A stretch of DNA of 64,000 bases from Alphaproteobacteria bacterium (GCA_964291675.2 OZ219866.1:2944001-3008000), one strand, 5' to 3'. Counted from the first letter of the stretch, positions 50,620 through 57,735 are shown. Made by a program: numbers and translations. Notes: generated by a model not told the origin, from the letters alone.

Positions 50620-51641
50620 TGCGGCACCGCCTCCAGCCCGACGATGCGCGCCGGGTTGAGCACCGAGACCCGGCGGATCTCGTCCTCGTCCAGCCCGAAC
50701 GCCGCCATGTAGCCGCGGATCAGGCGGATGCACTCGACCGAGTTGGGGAACAGCGGCTCGCCGGCATCCGACGACAGCGTGCAATGGGCCGGCCCCACTG
50801 CGCGGATCGCCTCGTACATCCGCGCCGGGTCGACGCCGAGCAGCGGCGACAGCTCGTCATAGGTGAAGTTGAGCGTAATCCCGGCGCCCGCCAGGCGCTT
50901 CATGTGCTCGATCTCGAGGTCGACGAAGGGGCTGAACGGGTGGTCGATCACCGCCTTCCCGAAGCCGAGCGCGGCGACCAGCTCGGCGAGGCGGTCGATC
51001 TCCCCATGGGTCGCGTGGCCGAAGAACAGCGCGATGCCGCGCTCGGCGCAGAGCCTCACGATATCCGCCACCTCGTCCTTCAGGCGTCCGTCCTCGCCCA
51101 GCAGGTAGTGGCCCTTCTCCAGCGCCTCCTCCCAGGGCAGCGGCTCGGAATGCGCCGCCGGGTCGGCGTCGGGGTCCCACCAGATCTCGCGCCCGCCCAC
51201 CTTGAAGTAGGTGTTGGCGTGGTTGAACACGGGCAGCCAGAGCGCGACCGCGCCCGAGGCGATCTGGTCCTCGCACCAGCGCCTGGTCGGCGCCGAGCCG
51301 TCGAACCCCATCAGCGCGCCGGCCCAGCACTCGACCGGCCGCACCCCCTCGGCGTCGGCCCATTCGGCGAGCGCGTCGCGGATGCGCCCCACCGCGTCGG
51401 CCGGGCGGGCGAAATCGGTGATGGTCTTGAACAGGATCCCCCGCATGCCCGAGCGCGAGGCGAATTTGGCGAGCGCCAGCGCGTCCTGCTGGCCGCCATG
51501 GGCGTGGCAGTGGATGTCGATCGCATCCGTCACGTTGGGCGCCTCGGGCGGGAAGAACACGCCCGGCGCATAGCCGCGCCGCGCCGGGTAGGAGGTGACG
51601 CAGCGCTCCTCGGTCGGGGTCGCGGGTGTGGTCCTCGCCAT
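50616..51641 (-). CDS. DUF6282-like metal-dependent TIM-barrel protein
   Basis: AIDIHCH, FGH, IDHP, LSSDAG. Confidence 0.75.
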   Translation of the reverse strand: MARTTPATPTEERCVTSYPARRGYAPGVFFPPEAPNVTDAIDIHCHAHGGQQDALALAKFASRSGMRGILFKTITDFARPADAVGRIRDALAEWADAEGVRPVECWAGALMGFDGSAPTRRWCEDQIASGAVALWLPVFNHANTYFKVGGREIWWDPDADPAAHSEPLPWEEALEKGHYLLGEDGRLKDEVADIVRLCAERGIALFFGHATHGEIDRLAELVAALGFGKAVIDHPFSPFVDLEIEHMKRLAGAGITLNFTYDELSPLLGVDPARMYEAIRAVGPAHCTLSSDAGEPLFPNSVECIRLIRGYMAAFGLDEDEIRRVSVLNPARIVGLEAVPQ

Positions 51642-51848
51642 CGCCTGTCCTCGGATAGGGGTGCCGGGGGCAGACTACATCAGAAGGGCGGGCGTTGGGA
51701 TCAGAAGGGCGGGCGTTGGGCAGGCGGGGCGGTTGTCGCTTCGGGCGGGGCGGGAATGCGCTCTCCCCACCGTCCCCACCCGCGCCGGCCTTGAACCGAG
51801 CGTCCGGTTTTCTTACGTTTCTTTTATCGATTGGAAAAGGTTACGACC

Positions 51849-52061
51849 ATGTCAAGGACAGCAACCCTGTCGTCCAAGTTCCAGATCTCGATCCCGAAGG
51901 CGGTGCGAACGGCTCGGCAATGGGAAGCCGGGCAGGTCTTCGCCTTCATCCCCAAGGGAACCGGCGTCCTCCTCGTTCCGGTCCCGGATCGCGACGCGCT
52001 CGCCGGCATCGCCGATGGCGCCGCGACGGACGGCTACCGCGATCGCTCGGATCGGCGCTGA
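51849..52061 (+). CDS. AbrB/MazE-type antitoxin
   Basis: TLSSKFQISIPKAVR motif; stop overlaps the toxin start. Confidence 0.9.
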   Translation: MSRTATLSSKFQISIPKAVRTARQWEAGQVFAFIPKGTGVLLVPVPDRDALAGIADGAATDGYRDRSDRR

Positions 52062-52435
52062 TGCGCCTCGTCGACAGCTCGGCCTGGATCGAGTGGCTGA
52101 TCGGCTCGCCCGTGGGAGAGGCCGTTGCGGAGCGCCTTCCGGAACAGCCTGCCTGGCTGGTTCCGACCATCGTCCAGCTCGAGCTCGCGAAGTGGCTCAC
52201 CCGGGAGCGTGGCGAGGACGAGGCCGATCGGGCGATCGCCTTCACCCAGGTCTGCAGCGTCGCCCCCCTGGACACGGAGATCGCTCTCGCCGCCGCCGAG
52301 GCCTGCCGTACGCACGGCCTCGCAACCGCGGACGCCATCGTCTTCGCCACCGCCCGTGCGCATGAGGCCGACCTGCTGACCTGCGATCGCCACTTCGAAG
52401 GCCTCCCCGGCACGATCCTCATCCCCAAGACCTGA
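52061..52435 (+). CDS. vapC: VapC/PIN toxin
   Basis: LVDSSAWIE, PTIVQLE, TADAIV, LLTCDRHF. Confidence 0.92.
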   Translation: MRLVDSSAWIEWLIGSPVGEAVAERLPEQPAWLVPTIVQLELAKWLTRERGEDEADRAIAFTQVCSVAPLDTEIALAAAEACRTHGLATADAIVFATARAHEADLLTCDRHFEGLPGTILIPKT

Positions 52436-52520
52436 GCCGGCGCCATTTTCCCCTCCGGGCGGCGCGTCGCTTCGGGCGGGGCGGAGAACGCCGGCGAGGC
52501 CCGCCCCGCCATCCCCGCCC

Positions 52521-52733
52521 CGTCATGGCCGGCCCCCGGATCGAGTCCGGGGGCGATCCGGCCATCCATGCCGCCTCGCGGCCCGCGAGGCGGTGGGTCG
52601 GGAGGGGCGGCGGCGCCAGTGGGTGCCCGGATCAGCCCCCTTCGTCATGGCCGGACTTGATCCGGCCATCCACGCGGCCTCTCCGCCCGCACGACGGTCC
52701 GACGAGAGGGGCGGCGGCGCCAGTGGGTGCCCG
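52521..52733. repeat. REP cluster whose last REP is interrupted by the IS
   Basis: cgtcatggccgg palindromes; ccagtgggtgcccg breaks off at 52733 and resumes as cggatcaagtccgggcatgac at 54093. Confidence 0.85.
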
Positions 52734-52812
52734 ATGGAGTGGACGCCCCCTCCGACGGCATCTGTGTGCCAAAGTGGCGGTGTCATCAACCCACTTGGAG
52801 GAGGGAGCATCC

Positions 52813-53844
52813 ATGGCCGAGGTTAGCATGATCGGGATCGATCTTTCGAAGCGGAGTTTTCAGCTGCACGGGATGTGCGCGGACGGCTCGGTGGGTTTCC
52901 GCCGGACGCTGAGCCGCGGCAGGCTGCTCGCCTTTGTGGCGCGTCAGCCGCGCTGCGTGGTGGCGATGGAGGCGTGCGGGGGTGCGCATCACTGGGGTCG
53001 CGAGATCCTCGATCTGGGCCATGAGGTGCGGCTGGTGCCGCCGGTCTATGTGAAGCCCTTCGTGAAGCGCCAGAAGAACGATGCGGCGGATGCGGCGGCG
53101 ATCTGCGAGGCGGCGTCGCGGCCGACCATGAGCCTGGTTGCGGTGAAGACGGCCGAGCAGCAGAGCCGCGGCATGCTGTTCCGGGTGCGCGATCTCCTGG
53201 TGCGCCAGCGCACCCAGGCGCTCGACGCGCTGCGCGGCCATCTGGCGGAGTTCGGGCTGGTGGCGCCGAAGGGTCCGGCGAGTGTCGGCAAGCTCGCGGT
53301 GGCGCTGGAGGCTGCGCGGGCCGGTCTGCCGGACCGGGTGGGCGAGCTCGCCGGGGTGCTGCTGGAGCAGATCGCCGGGCTGGACGAACAGGTCGCCGAG
53401 CTCGACAAGGAGCTGCGCGCCGAGGCGCGGCGGGATGCGGATGCGCGCCGGCTGATGACCATACCGGGGGTCGGGCCGGTCACCGCGATGGCGATCCAGG
53501 CCTTCGCGCCGCCGCTCGACGGGTTCCGCCGCGGGCGCGACTTCTCGGCCTGGCTCGGGCTGGTGCCGCGCCAGCACACGACGGCCGGCAAGCCGCGGCT
53601 GGGCAGGATATCGAAGATGGGCCAGCGCGATCTCAGGCGGCTCTTGGTGCTCGGCGCCATGTCGGTGGTCCGCAGCGCCGGGCGCCACGACACGGTGCGC
53701 GACCCGTGGCTGGCCGGGATGCTGGCCACCAGGAAGCCGAAGAAGCTGATCGCCGTGGCGCTGGCCAACCGCACCGCGCGCATCGCCTGGGCGATGACCA
53801 CGAGACAGCAGAGCTACCGGGCGCCCGCGCCGAACACCGCCTGA
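52813..53844 (+). CDS. IS110-family recombinase/transposase (IS1111 group)
   Basis: GIDLSK, MEACG, KNDAADA (DEDD); IPGVGP, AWLGLVP, ALANR. Confidence 0.95.
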   Translation: MAEVSMIGIDLSKRSFQLHGMCADGSVGFRRTLSRGRLLAFVARQPRCVVAMEACGGAHHWGREILDLGHEVRLVPPVYVKPFVKRQKNDAADAAAICEAASRPTMSLVAVKTAEQQSRGMLFRVRDLLVRQRTQALDALRGHLAEFGLVAPKGPASVGKLAVALEAARAGLPDRVGELAGVLLEQIAGLDEQVAELDKELRAEARRDADARRLMTIPGVGPVTAMAIQAFAPPLDGFRRGRDFSAWLGLVPRQHTTAGKPRLGRISKMGQRDLRRLLVLGAMSVVRSAGRHDTVRDPWLAGMLATRKPKKLIAVALANRTARIAWAMTTRQQSYRAPAPNTA

Positions 53845-53849
53845 GCGCG

Positions 53850-54060
53850 GCGGATGCGGGCCGCCGTCGGCAGTGCGGGCGAGGTCTGAGGACGGGTAAG
53901 GACAAACGGTCGATGAGACGGGATCGGGAAAACCAGTTTGATCCGGCGCGCCGAAGAGCACGCGTGCCCGTATGCCATACAGGCCCGCGGCGCCGCATAG
54001 GCCGCAAGCAGAGGCCGCATAGACGACAGCACCTGACCGCACTGTCCGAACCGTTCGAAA
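53850..54060 (+). ncRNA. Candidate seek/bridge RNA of the IS1111-group element
   Basis: Contains ttgatccgg and gtgcccg matching the two halves of the target REP, and catagacga matching the circle junction; ends approximate. Confidence 0.7.
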
Positions 54061-54092
54061 AAAAACCTTGCACCGCCGGGGGCGTCCATAGA

Positions 54093-54575
54093 CGGATCAA
54101 GTCCGGGCATGACGAGGGAGGGCCGGGGGCGACGGCGGCATGCGACGACGCGTCGCGCGTGTCGCGATCCGTGTCCCGATCCGGCGGATGGGCCGGAAAT
54201 TCGCGCGTACCGAGGCTTTGCGCCCGGTCCAGCTCATCCAAACCGGACAGCAGTGGCCTCGATCCGGGCATCCACTGGCGCCGCCGCTCCTCCCGACGGG
54301 GCGTTGTACCGGTGGCGCCAGTGGTTGCGCGGATCAAGTCCGCGCATGGGTGGCCGGATCAAGTCCGGCCATGACGGGGTGGGGGTGGCGGTGGAGGAGT
54401 ACGGGAGCCGGGGGCGGACCGCCCCACCCGTGGGTGCCCGGAACGAGGCCGGGGTGACAACGGAGGGGCAGGGACGGCAAGTGCGGGCGTGCGGCGATCC
54501 GTGTCCCGATCCGGCGGATGCGCCGATATCCCGCCCGGATCAAGGCTTTGCGCCCGGTCCAGCTCATATAAACCG
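54093..54575. repeat. REP/REPIN cluster with two copies of a roughly 75-bp unit
   Basis: gcgatccgtgtcccgatccggcggatg...aggctttgcgcccggtccagctcat at about 54164-54237 and 54494-54567; reverse REPIN at about 54255-54376. Confidence 0.85.
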
Positions 54576-54639
54576 TCATGGTCTCGGCGGTGCTGAGCCA
54601 CCCCGTGGCATGAAACTCGGGGCGTTCGGCTGAGGGTTT

Positions 54640-54860
54640 GCCGATCGTCGCGCGGGTCTGCCGTGGCAGGATGGGAATGGTGGAGGCGGCGACGCGTGAG
54701 CGTTCCGTTTATCGGTGATGTGGTTCCCGAGATATAAACTGCTTCCGGCGGTCGGCTCCGCACCCCGTACTGTGCCCGGCCCGCGGCCGTGGACGCGCGG
54801 CAAATCGAACCGCACCCGCTCGACGGGTGCGTGTCCTTCCGACCGCTGTCCCCGCCTCCA
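54640..54860 (+). ncRNA. Candidate bridge RNA of the IS110-group element
   Basis: atataaac (54732-54739) equals the left target flank; cggcaaa (54798-54804) equals the right-end donor; both lie in hand-predicted internal loops; ends approximate. Confidence 0.65.
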
Positions 54861-54922
54861 CCGTGGCGATGCCACGGCGCGATCCTACGCCGCCGTGGCG
54901 AGAGCGCAACGAGGAGGACAGC

Positions 54923-56174
54923 GATGAAGACGGAAGGCTTGCACGTCGTGCGGCCGCGCGCGGCGGGTCTGGACGTGCACAAGATGGAGATCACCGCGAC
55001 GGTTCGCCTGTGCGAGGGCGAGGGCGAGCCGGTGGTGGAGACGCGCTGCTTCAGCTCGCTTCCGAGCGGTCTGGCGGAGATGGTCGCCTGGCTGACCGGT
55101 CGCCGCGTCGAGGCCGCTGTCATGGAAGGGACCGGGATCTACTGGCAGGCGCCCTTCGCGGCGGTGGAGGCGGCGGGGATCGAAGCGATCCTGGTGCACG
55201 CGCGTCAGGTCAAGCAGTTGAAGGGGCGCAAGACCGATGTCGCCGACAGCGTGTGGCTGGCCTGCGTGTGCCAGTTCGGGCTCTGCACGCCTTCCCATGT
55301 TCCCCCCGAGCCGTTCCGGGAGCTGCGCTCGCTGAGCCGCCAGCGGCGTACCCTGGTCAGGCAGCGCTCGACCGTGCGCAACCGGGTGCAGAAGATCGTC
55401 GACCGCGCCGGCCTGCGCATCGGCGGCATCCTCTCCGACGTCTTCGGCGTCAACGGCCGCAAGATCCTCGACGGGCTGGCGCAAGCCACGCCGCGCGCGG
55501 TCATCCTCGCCTCGCTCACCGGCCACGTCGCCAACAAGCTGGAGGGGCTCGGCGAGGCGCTCTCCCTGAGCCTGGGCGACAACGACCGCTTCATGCTCGG
55601 CGATCTGCTGGACGAGCATGACGCGCTCGAGGCGCGCATCGCGTCCTACGGCGAGAAGATCGACCGGCAGATGACGCCGTGGCAGGAACAGCTCCGCCTG
55701 CTGACCACCATCCCCGGCATCGACCGCATCGCCGCCTCGACCATCCTGATCGAGATCGGCCCGGATATCGAGGCGTTCGCCTCCAAGCAGCACTTCGCCG
55801 CCTGGGCCGGGCTCTGCCCCGGCAACAACGAAAGCGGCGGAAAGCGCCGCAACGCGCGCACCCGAAGGGGCTCCAAGACGCTGCGCGCCAGCCTCGTCGA
55901 ATGTGCCCACGGCGCGGCCCGAACCAAGGGGTGCCAGTTCGAGGCCCACCACCGCGCGCTCGCCGCCCGGCGCGGATACAAGCGCGCCATCGTGGCCGGC
56001 GCACACAAGATGCTGCGCATCGTTTATGTCGTGCTCAAGACCGGCAGGCCCTACTACGACCGCACCGCCGACTACGACGCGCTGATGGTCAAGCGCAACG
56101 CCCCGCGCTGGATCCGAATGCTCCGCCGCTACGGCTACATCCAACCCCGGCGCGCCGAACCCAAGGCCACCTGA
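54923..56174 (+). CDS. IS110-family recombinase/transposase
   Basis: GLDVHK, MEGTG, KTDVADS (DEDD); TIPGI, AWAGLCPGNNESGG; RBS gaggagga. Confidence 0.95.
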
Positions 56175-56525
56175 CCGGCCCGCATAACGCCGGACCGCCG
56201 CGCGGGACCGCTTCGGGCCACATCGGGGAAGTCCACCGCTCGTCTCCGCCGCCCCCTTCCGGCGATCTCAGCCAACTCCCTCCCGGCGTTGGATGGGGCC
56301 CTCGCGCGCCCCCACCGAAACTGTTTCACGGCAAACCGGACAGCAGTGGACTCGATCCGGGCATCCATGCCGCCTCGCGGCCCGCGAGGCGGTGGGTCGG
56401 GAGCGCTGCCGGCGACCCCACGGCGGTTTCGTCGTCGCCGCGCGACGGCGTCTTATTAAACTTTTGCCCTGTAATCCTAATAGCGCCAAGCCTAGCTACG
56501 TTTCGTTTAATTGGGGCGCCCGTCC

Positions 56526-56770
56526 ATGTACCGGGGCGAGACCGGCCGATACGAAGCGACCGTCGTGGGCGGCGAGACGGTGCGGGCCTTCGTTCCGGCC
56601 GCCCTGCCCCCGGCGCCCCCGCTCGACTATCCTTCCCGGCGGCGTCGGCGGCAATGGAGATCCTCGAAAACTCGGGCATCGCGCGCGAGTTGACGGGCAA
56701 GAAGCGCAACCGCCGGTTCGGCTATGCCCGCTATGTCGCCATCCTCGGCGAGGGAACCGAACCGCTGTGA
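56526..56770 (+). pseudogene. Fic family protein remnant (catalytic core deleted)
   Basis: N-terminus GETVRAFVPAALPP joined out of frame to C-terminus ELTGKKRNRRFGYARYVAILGEGTE; no HPFxDGNGR. Confidence 0.8.
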
Positions 56771-56792
56771 GCGGCCGGGCGCCTTTCGCCCC

Positions 56793-57116
56793 TCAGCACC
56801 CCAGCACCCGCACATGCCCTTCCGCGCCGTAGTCGAGCAGGAGGCGGTCGCGCGTGACCAGCGTATAGCCGAACGCCCGCGCGGTGGCGGCGAGGATGCG
56901 ATCCGCCGGGTCGGCGGGCGGCGAGCCGGGCAGGGCGCAGGAGGCGATCGGCACCGAGGGCGGCATCTCGGCCAGCGCCACCCCGGGCAGCGCGCAGAAG
57001 CGCTCGAACCATGCCCCGGGCGCGAGCGACAGGGCGATCCGGCCCTGTCGCTCCAGCATGGCGAGCTCCCACGCGGTCACCGGGGAGACGGCGAGCCCCG
57101 CGCCCGGCCCCGTCAT
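56793..57116 (-). pseudogene. 5'-truncated VapC/PIN toxin
   Basis: VSPVTAWEL, DPADRIL, LVTRD present; N-terminal LLDT strand and antitoxin missing. Confidence 0.78.
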
Positions 57117-57120
57117 CCCC

Positions 57121-57345
57121 CTACCGCAGCACCGTCTCCAGCACCGCGCCGAGCAGGCCGAGGGCGACCGAAGCCATCATGCCGTAGGCGATCAGCATCA
57201 CCGGGCGGAAGCTCTCCTTGGTGACGAACTCCTCCAGCCGGTCGTGGATCGCCCTGGTGCGCTCGTCGAGCCGGGCGAGCAGCACCCGGTCCTCGCCGTT
57301 GAACGGCCGGGCGGATGCGGTGTAGCGCTCGTCGGTGCGGTCCAT
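57121..57345 (-). CDS. Small phage membrane protein (holin/XhlA-like)
   Basis: LARLDERT coiled coil, FVTKESF, single C-terminal TM; last gene of the phage-like operon. Confidence 0.55.
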   Translation of the reverse strand: MDRTDERYTASARPFNGEDRVLLARLDERTRAIHDRLEEFVTKESFRPVMLIAYGMMASVALGLLGAVLETVLR

Positions 57346-57348
57346 GGC

Positions 57349-57735
57349 TCAGCCCCGGCGCCGGCGATACGCGGCGAGCCGGCCGGCGCGCGCCGCCTCG
57401 ACGAAGCGCTCGATCGCCGCCAGGGCCGAGCGCGGCGGACCGCCCGCGGCGGCGGGCGGCGGGAGCGCCGGGAACGGCACCCGGGGCGGCGGGGAGGCGG
57501 GCATCGGCGGCGCCGGCCGGCCGGGCCGCGGCATCGCCGCGCCGCCCGCCGGCAGCCGCGGCGGCGCCGGCATCGGCGTCCGCCCCTTCACCGGCTCGGC
57601 TCCGGCGGTCAGGAAATCGGCGAGCAGGCGGAGCGCGACGGCCCGGTAGTCCGGGTCCCCGGGCGGGTGGGTCATGCGCGGCGTGCGGGCGGACGCGCTG
57701 CCGCGCCGGAAGGTGGATATCGGGTGCTTCTCCAT
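57349..57735 (-). CDS. Proline-rich hypothetical phage protein
   Basis: RBS ggag before ATG; fills the gap in the operon. Confidence 0.45.
   Translation of the reverse strand: MEKHPISTFRRGSASARTPRMTHPPGDPDYRAVALRLLADFLTAGAEPVKGRTPMPAPPRLPAGGAAMPRPGRPAPPMPASPPPRVPFPALPPPAAAGGPPRSALAAIERFVEAARAGRLAAYRRRRG

Follow-up and report, generated by a model that had tools for sequence, protein, structure and literature searches.

The stretch of DNA analysed here (64,000 nucleotides (nt) of an Alphaproteobacteria bacterium, GCA_964291675.2 OZ219866.1:2944001-3008000, referred to below as the window) harbours at 54572-56332 (+) an active-looking insertion sequence, assigned to the IS110 family from its sequence, the 352-nt left non-coding end of which very probably encodes a guide-carrying bridge (seek) RNA. 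The mechanism is that of the known bridge/seek RNAs; it is the variant of the layout that is new. [quoted passage not shown] The 3' strand of the target module, AUAUAAAC, repeats the left side of the target (ATAT, AA and AC), and CGGCAAAU of the donor module repeats the right end of the element and the core; in relatives both segments vary along with the flank or end. The proposed guides are as follows.

54732..54739 (+): left target guide AUAUAAAC, four programmable bases followed by the AA core and AC, in the sense of the target top strand
54703..54712 (+): right target guide on the 5' strand of the target loop, UUCCGUUUAU, the guide proper being 54703-54710
54798..54805 (+): left donor guide CGGCAAAU, in the sense of the right end with the core, CGGC-AA-AC, and finishing in a G-U wobble

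An earlier note, made from the sequence of the window alone, had proposed atataaac at 54732-54739 as the left target guide and had set covariation of loop and flank among relatives with different targets as the test beforehand. The string sits there, and the covariation was found in the relatives collected (from 78 loci in genomes, 15 in metagenomes, and 5 further genomes belonging to the same order). When the first site of each of 17 distinct elements is taken, the four bases preceding AAAC are identical to those left of the core in 63 of 68 comparisons; deranged pairings of guides and flanks averaged 18.7 and went no higher than 31, and none of 10,000 was as high as 63, although the elements are related and the significance is therefore overstated. 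Counted over all 64 sites, the guide bases match the flank at four positions in 36 cases, at three in 24, at two in 3 and at none in 1. Among the elements added from metagenomes, the match is 4/4 in L131, L119 and L018, 3/4 in L124 and L125, and 2/4 in L122. Positions to the left of the four guide bases contribute little to the matching of the flank. Judged from these alignments, the programmable part is probably only about four bases left of the core, and the ATAT present here fits the filled repeat units and not ATCC. In the 64-kb window ATATAAAC occurs twice (54566 and 54732), as compared with 0.01 occurrences expected, and 0 of 100 shuffles reach two.

The right target guide precedes the left one in the target loop (right guide 5' of left). 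In this element its GUUU pairs with AAAC and its UCC with GGA, both on the top strand of the target, AAACCGGA. Family-wide, the summed longest complementary runs amount to 88 versus a mean of 69.0 (standard deviation 3.9), with 0 of 20,000 reaching 88, and runs of at least 5 are found in 8/23 cognate versus 33/506 non-cognate pairs; a previous test on 17 elements gave 61 versus 51.0, 34 of 10,000 being as high. A sister element (in genome G019) encodes an identical protein and occupies CATCT sites; where the present element has AUAU and UUCCGUUU, it has AUCU and UUCCUUUU, and its left end exhibits six differences from the element described here, including one base in each target guide. Its third copy is located at GGCT-AA-AGGAGA, and UCCUUU is complementary to AAAGGA. 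Both of these guide changes, 54734 A>C as well as 54707 G>T, are also present in contigs of sponge-metagenome runs. Three other candidates for right-hand guides, UCCGG (54746-50), GCUGUCC (54846-52) and GACGG (54822-26), were rejected, being situated inside helices P4, P1/P4 and P6, respectively, of the fold described below.

The insertion occupies one unit of a 330-bp repeat; the unit next to it represents an empty site with ATCC in place of ATAT.

54229..54256 (+): empty paralogous site ccagctcATCCaaaccggacagcagtgg (…CTCATCC-AA-ACCGGACAGCAGTGG), with 2 mismatches to the left target guide
54559..54571 (+): left flank CCAGCTCATAT and the left AA core copy (54570-54571)
54559-54575: filled left junction ccagctcATATaaaccg
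56330-56349: filled right junction ggcaaaccggacagcagtgg
56333..56349 (+): right AA core copy (56333-56334) and right target flank ACCGGACAGCAGTGG

The filled site reads CCAGCTCATAT-AAACCG-TCATGG… from 54559 and …CACGGC-AAACCG-GACAGCAGTGG from 56327, and the empty version at 54229-54256 reads CCAGCTCATCC-AAACCGGACAGCAGTGG; every string that the earlier note had given for the filled site and for the empty unit 330 bp upstream was located where it had been placed. Over 92 nt, the left arms 54154-54245 and 54484-54575 are 84% alike, at a distance of exactly 330 nt; for the right arm 56332-56367 and 54239-54274 the likeness is 97% over 36 nt. The spacing of 330 nt is the period of a tandem repeat, two diverged units of which are found in the window (54154-54575), and a tandem array of 4.0 units with 98% matches is situated beside another copy of the element (L004 3292-4602, G000 C1). 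The host genome (4.81 Mb in 2 contigs) contains 31 empty repeat units and 8 copies of the element, which are 99-100% alike and have the same repeat flanking both sides of every copy.

A census of the repeat-family sites with an intact AAACCGG in the host genome, compared by the four bases left of the core, gave the following occupancy.

ATAT: filled 5/5
ACAT: filled 2/6
ATCT: filled 1/5
ATAC: filled 0/2
AGCT: filled 0/1
ATCC: filled 0/11

By class, 5/5 of the perfect sites, 3/14 of those with one mismatch and 0/11 of those with two mismatches are filled. Nine further empty units are altered in the A-run or the next bases, 3 of them having ATAT followed by AAG or GAAC. The filled ATAT unit and its ATCC neighbour make up a natural mismatched (on/off-target) pair, as had been predicted. 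The further claim that the guide explains the specificity of the element held in part, ATAT being filled and ATCC empty, and failed in part, since three sites matching at 8/8 and seven ATCT sites of the sister genome are empty. Hence, a guide match alone is insufficient, because matching sites stand empty. Genome-wide, ATATAAAC is found 16 times: 8 times as a guide, 5 times at a junction and 3 times as an empty site that lies outside the repeat. These last three are located at G000 C1 (minus) 250383, C2 (minus) 2422342 and C2:1697837, and two of them are copies of one sequence; in all three the next base is G, giving AAACG, to which CGUUU in the right guide strand is complementary.

It could be argued that the protein, by reading the repeat, or homology with the repeat determines the site, and that ATATAAAC in the left end is a matter of chance or a relic copy of the target. 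Such an explanation would account for the three empty ATATAAAC sites outside the repeat and for the location of all eight copies in one repeat family, and flank conservation alone therefore cannot separate the RNA from the protein reading; yet it leaves unaccounted for four bases that change with the left flank in 17 elements of unrelated hosts and flanks (the 63/68 given above), the position of the guide bases in the loop of a covarying fold, and an 8-mer expected only 0.01 times per window. We consider it highly improbable.

The RNA itself was delineated by RNAalifold and inspection, with a covariance model built from 10 sequences, 27 matches of which (25 distinct) were realigned. Comparison of the relatives has shown that the left end holds a predicted three-way-junction RNA with the target module before the donor module, in agreement with the order that the earlier note had proposed for a structured left-end RNA.

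54679..54862 (+): predicted bridge RNA core of 184 nt, defined by the conserved block in the left-end alignment and the covariance model
54679-54692 with 54849-54862: closing helix P1
54698-54702 with 54740-54744: P2, which closes the target module
54703-54712: 5' loop strand of the target module
54713-54729: P3 hairpin, between the two target guides
54730-54739: 3' loop strand of the target module
54746-54755 with 54839-54848: P4, which closes the donor module
54756-54771: J1, CUCCGCACCCCGUACU, a conserved single strand of the donor multiloop
54772-54794: P5 hairpin
54795-54810: J2
54811-54831: P6 hairpin
54832-54838: J3

In the 25 distinct sequences, 94.7% of the cells pair, versus 83.8% in shuffled alignments and 39-49% when the 3' partners are slid, in an alignment that was fitted to the proposed structure and is hence biased towards it. 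Changes on both sides are seen at 25 of 50 pairs. All five pair measures lie above all 500 shuffles, the sequences being related, so that the shuffles overstate the significance. G-U pairs are frequent (e.g. 22/24 at one P2 pair), which identifies the + strand as the RNA strand. The fold of the single left-end sequence was not distinguishable from that of shuffles (z -1.41), and such a weak signal is to be expected because G+C amounts to 69%. The gag/ctc stem that had been suggested to close the target loop opposite tcgg was not supported: it pairs in 54.2% of cells, and tcgg belongs to helix P4. In one metatranscriptome run, 26 of 30 bins are covered by contigs, with 54714-54884 of a variant among the parts covered; DNA carry-over is possible, and such contigs are without power to show a transcript, RNA ends or strand. 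A search of 150 other genomes of the class with the RNA model yielded 0 matches, which, the family being sporadic, is not proof of absence.

An RNA structure upstream of a gene may also be mainly a regulatory leader of the recombinase mRNA, acting on translation or stability, with the flank matches serving excision or recognition of inverted-repeat-like ends at the DNA level, and not RNA guiding. Between the fold and the start codon there are 62 nt, the ribosome-binding site being at 54912-54919, and several segments of the left end copy the termini in inverted or direct form (TGAAAC/GTTTCA; 54631-54643 versus the joined ends), as would suit a leader. The frequent G-U pairs and compensatory changes, on the other hand, point to selection on the + strand RNA, the protein passes the NCBIfam model of RNA-guided transposases, and the geometry of the guides, same-sense and antisense, equals that shown experimentally for IS621 and ISEc21. 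The leader explanation is thus very unlikely, if marginally less so than site choice by the protein or the repeat.

Returning to the bridge RNA, cggcaaa at 54798-54804, which the earlier note had taken for the donor guide, sits as described and tracks the right ends of the relatives. On its own CGGCAAA is at chance level (7 matches versus 6.3 expected), and its weight comes from the relatives: in 17/17 elements the only position that varies (G or A) is the same in the left donor guide as in the right end. The agreement extends to L119, L121 and L124, in a test that rests on one variable column. A segment further upstream may also be involved in reading the donor.

54631..54643 (+): TGAGGGTTTGCCG, candidate right donor guide or a stem opposing the left donor guide, 12/13 complementary to the joined ends

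TGAGGGTTTGCCG is complementary to the joined ends' top strand, CGGC-AA-ACCGTCA. Some relatives are without the segment, which is not general in the family, and a family-wide complement test of 54631-54643 was marginal (69/5,000).

The donor module might alternatively be a simple internal loop closed by GGAC/GUCC, the stem put forward in the earlier note, instead of a P4-closed multiloop with P5. This stem does pair, in 93.8% of cells, and to that extent the suggestion stood; it shows no covariation, none of its four pairs (0/4) changing on both sides, and it competes with P5, in which one pair is compensated. In the GAAC lineage the compensation (C-G to U-A, 3 sequences) is found in P5 and not in GUGC. 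The internal loop is therefore regarded as rather unlikely, albeit a far more serious contender than the two explanations above.

Several observations weigh against a guide-carrying RNA as the whole account. The right target guide of this element, UUCCGUUU, offers 4 pairs in a row, or 7 if a single mismatch or bulge is allowed, and a relative with 32 sites (the L034 group; 41 loci, of which 32 distinct sites are left after removal of tandem copies and copies without a right end) exhibits no right-flank preference beyond one A. L122 sits at a site that matches its left guide at 2/4 positions. Three perfect ATATAAAC sites outside the repeat carry no element, and the sister genome G019 has 7 empty versus 2 filled ATCT-AAACCGG sites among 30 of its 51 matching loci, from which it follows that occupancy there is far from saturated. 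No right donor guide was found by a column scan, by exact-run searches of the ends or by a junction-complement test; none of the RNA columns tracks the variable left-end bases, and L080, L085 and L119 differ at these bases yet have identical donor-loop strands. An Rfam scan of 51500-57500 returned no match, two sub-threshold chance ones only, and sigma-70 scans of the left end and of the natural end-to-end junction of a relative detected no promoter-like site. To these is added the bias, mentioned above, of the alignment used for the pair counts. As a separate observation, the site of L121/L122 matches the right target guide at 6/6 and the left guide at 2/4, and may represent a half-match insertion; recombination of the half-match kind is the subject of a 2026 preprint.

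Counting one copy of the AA core, the element (54572-56332 (+), left end to right end) comprises 1,763 bp. In every relative collected, the left junction follows the pattern …AAAC-NN-YCATG and the right end the pattern TTYNNNGC-AA. In the L034-group relative, the right flanks diverge directly after GGCAA or GGCAAA and the left flanks share only (G)ACA before AA. Since the right flanks of the relatives vary directly after GGCAA, the core common to both junctions is read from these alignments as AA. This bears out the A-rich core of the earlier note and leads to rejection of the AAACCG duplication as the core; the ACCG shared by both junctions is likely to reflect chance or a likeness of the right side of the target to the start of the element. 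As the comparison of filled and empty units revealed, only a short core is shared at both ends, as is characteristic of site-specific insertion in the IS110 family. The number of A's at the junctions varies by one: GGCAACCGG versus GGCAAACCGG in the G000 copies C1:829229 and C1 minus strand 605981, CAGCAATGCGG versus CAGCAAATGCGG in a Pseudomonadales relative (L096-L105), and 3 versus 4 A's in tandem junctions (L040/L045). Because the junctions differ by one A, this suggests that the exchange point may slip within the A-run.

In the contigs of two public runs, 54569 is joined to 56333 or 54568 to 56332, so that 1,763 bases are skipped, consistent with the boundaries; the sides of these contigs are short (28-32 nt), and paralogous empty units are an equally possible source. 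The joined-end junction of a circular form would read GGC-AA(A)-CCGTCATGG. No such back-joint was present among the joints listed for the contigs of 4 runs, contigs being prone to drop rare forms, and natural tandem copies with abutted ends were found in one relative (L045, L050, L055, L093). The coding and terminal parts of the element are listed below.

54580..54616 (+): conserved left-end start, kept in all relatives, with a putative function only; it consists of a hairpin (54580-54599), then CACCCCGT (54599-54606), then CATGAAAC (54609-54616)
54924..56174 (+): recombinase gene, 416 aa (amino acids), with PF01548 (residues 14-161) and PF02371 (258-342)
56175..56332 (+): right non-coding end of 158 nt, finishing GTTTCA(56323-56328)CGGC

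The product of the recombinase gene matches PF01548 (DEDD_Tnp_IS110; E 2.4e-22) and PF02371 (Transposase_20; E 3.5e-23), both above the Pfam cut-offs, and NCBIfam NF033542, the IS110 family RNA-guided transposase (264.8 bits versus a cut-off of 140). Together with the open frame, these matches confirm the 416-aa IS110-family recombinase reported previously. In two of the 8 genome copies the frame is broken near codon 97-99. In an alignment with ISCro4, GLDVHK (D17), MEGTG (E68), KTDVADS (D105, D108) and NESGG (S304) align with the same motifs, and we infer that D17/E68/D105/D108/S304 are equivalent to D11/E60/D102/D105/S241 of IS621. The nearest solved structures, ISCro4 and IS621, are weak matches (58-59 bits), and all protein matches from plasmids and the PDB are below 44% identity and carry generic names.

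The TGAAAC of the left-end start is an inverted match of the GTTTCA near the right end. CACCCCGT is present at 54599-54606 and again at 54761-54768 (J1), and every relative retains CCCCG in both positions. With 158-200 nt, the right non-coding end is long by the standards of IS110-type elements, and inside subgroups it is well conserved, e.g. …CACATCGGGGAAGTCCACCGCTCGTC…. In the copy L009 (G000 C2:1939775-1939952) a second partial right end of ∼178 nt directly follows the right end and begins at an internal target-like site, …CATAA|CGCCGGACC; a 15-nt duplication of the right tip occurs in the G000 C1 minus-strand copy at 103595. A different, shorter gene of the IS110 family (342 aa, PF01548 + PF02371) is situated at 52816-53841 (+), ∼700 bp upstream, and the stretches 52555-52629 and 52659-52733 before it are 77-85% like 56354-56428, to the right of the second element.

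The clade is sporadic, being represented in genomes of sponge-associated Alphaproteobacteria, Pseudomonadales, Vicinamibacterales and Binatia. One relative (L034-L068 and others), the protein of which is 92% identical, occupies unrelated sites in at least 34 copies, with (G)ACA-AA-A as the only motif in common; its loci come from one Alphaproteobacteria metagenome-assembled genome and two others. Runs with near-identical words (X1-X20, from 15 studies in all) are mostly labelled sponge metagenomes; contigs were compared for X1, X2, X3 and X14, and the habitat is a lead only. In L069, from ∼3734 onward, the left end of a different member directly follows the right end of one member, and a second match to the RNA model is interrupted (795-957 / 2326-2421); the arrangement looks like nested or tandem insertions of related elements.

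Taken jointly, five features might define a clade with a distinct "half-guided" design, a proposal that we put forward tentatively and that seems somewhat doubtful at present. The clade may have a left-end RNA like IS110 combined with the target-guide order of IS1111 and a three-way junction, and its AA core may lie inside an A-run that allows slippage by one base. Its left guides would read past the core into the partner, a possible bottom-strand "handshake". The right side of the donor may be read by conserved DNA motifs or by an upstream left-end segment and not by the donor loop, and specificity may be down to about 6-7 bases in some members (ACA-AAA, at least 34 copies).

RNA-guided IS110 recombinases are known and are being engineered, and one more member is not news alone. 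What the present element provides is a natural specificity series in one genome, together with a sister element that has an identical protein. The AA core and the reversed guide order in a left-end RNA widen the known design space, and the relatives, which span the range from insertion into a repeat only to a motif of roughly 6 bases, bear on the rules of off-target insertion.

In IS621 the RNA lies in the left end, with left guides that read as the top strand does and right guides complementary to it (Durrant 2024, PMC11208160; Hiraizumi 2024, PMC11208158); the target loop is arranged as stem, left target guide, stem loop, right target guide and stem, the loops are simple internal ones, and the core is CT. 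The element described here resembles IS621 in its left-end RNA, in the target module preceding the donor module, in left guides of top-strand sense that include the core, in a right target guide complementary to the core and the right flank, in the DEDD and Tnp domains, and in insertion into a repeated extragenic element. The proteins are distant (58 bits, confined to the C-terminal domain; 328 aa in IS621 versus 416 aa here). Further differences are the core (AA here, CT in IS621), the target-loop order (right then left here, left then right in IS621), the number of programmable left bases (about 4 here versus 7), left guides that run 1-2 bases past the core, unlike those of IS621, and a donor strand located in a multiloop and not in a simple internal loop; in comparison with IS621, neither a right donor guide nor handshake bases were seen here. 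Donor-binding bases in a multiloop have been described for many IS1111 elements (Durrant 2024, PMC11208160).

With the IS1111 seekRNAs (ISEc11, ISPa11, ISKpn4; PMC11187229) the element shares the right-then-left order of the target guides and a sub-terminal inverted motif (TGAAAC/GTTTCA here). In IS1111, however, the guide RNA lies downstream of the gene, and not upstream as here, the transposases have 330-350 aa as opposed to 416 aa (PMC11187229), and the inverted repeats are sub-terminal and 7-17 bp long, whereas here a single 6-bp motif is asymmetrically placed. For ISPpu10 and other REP-targeting IS110 elements, all insertions lie in copies of one conserved intergenic repeat (bioRxiv 10.64898/2026.03.19.712850), and likewise here, ISPpu10 being a different element from a different host; both raise the question whether base pairing alone sets the specificity. 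In a 2026 preprint, 32,190 bridge RNAs were predicted and 86 covariance models reported, many of which deviate from IS621. Because the models include many such deviating forms, the layout seen here may already be catalogued within the 86-model set. The IS110-proper subgroup comprises proteins of 395-455 aa and includes IS110 itself (Siddiquee 2024, PMC11187229); the 416-aa recombinase and the upstream non-coding region of the present element fit this description.

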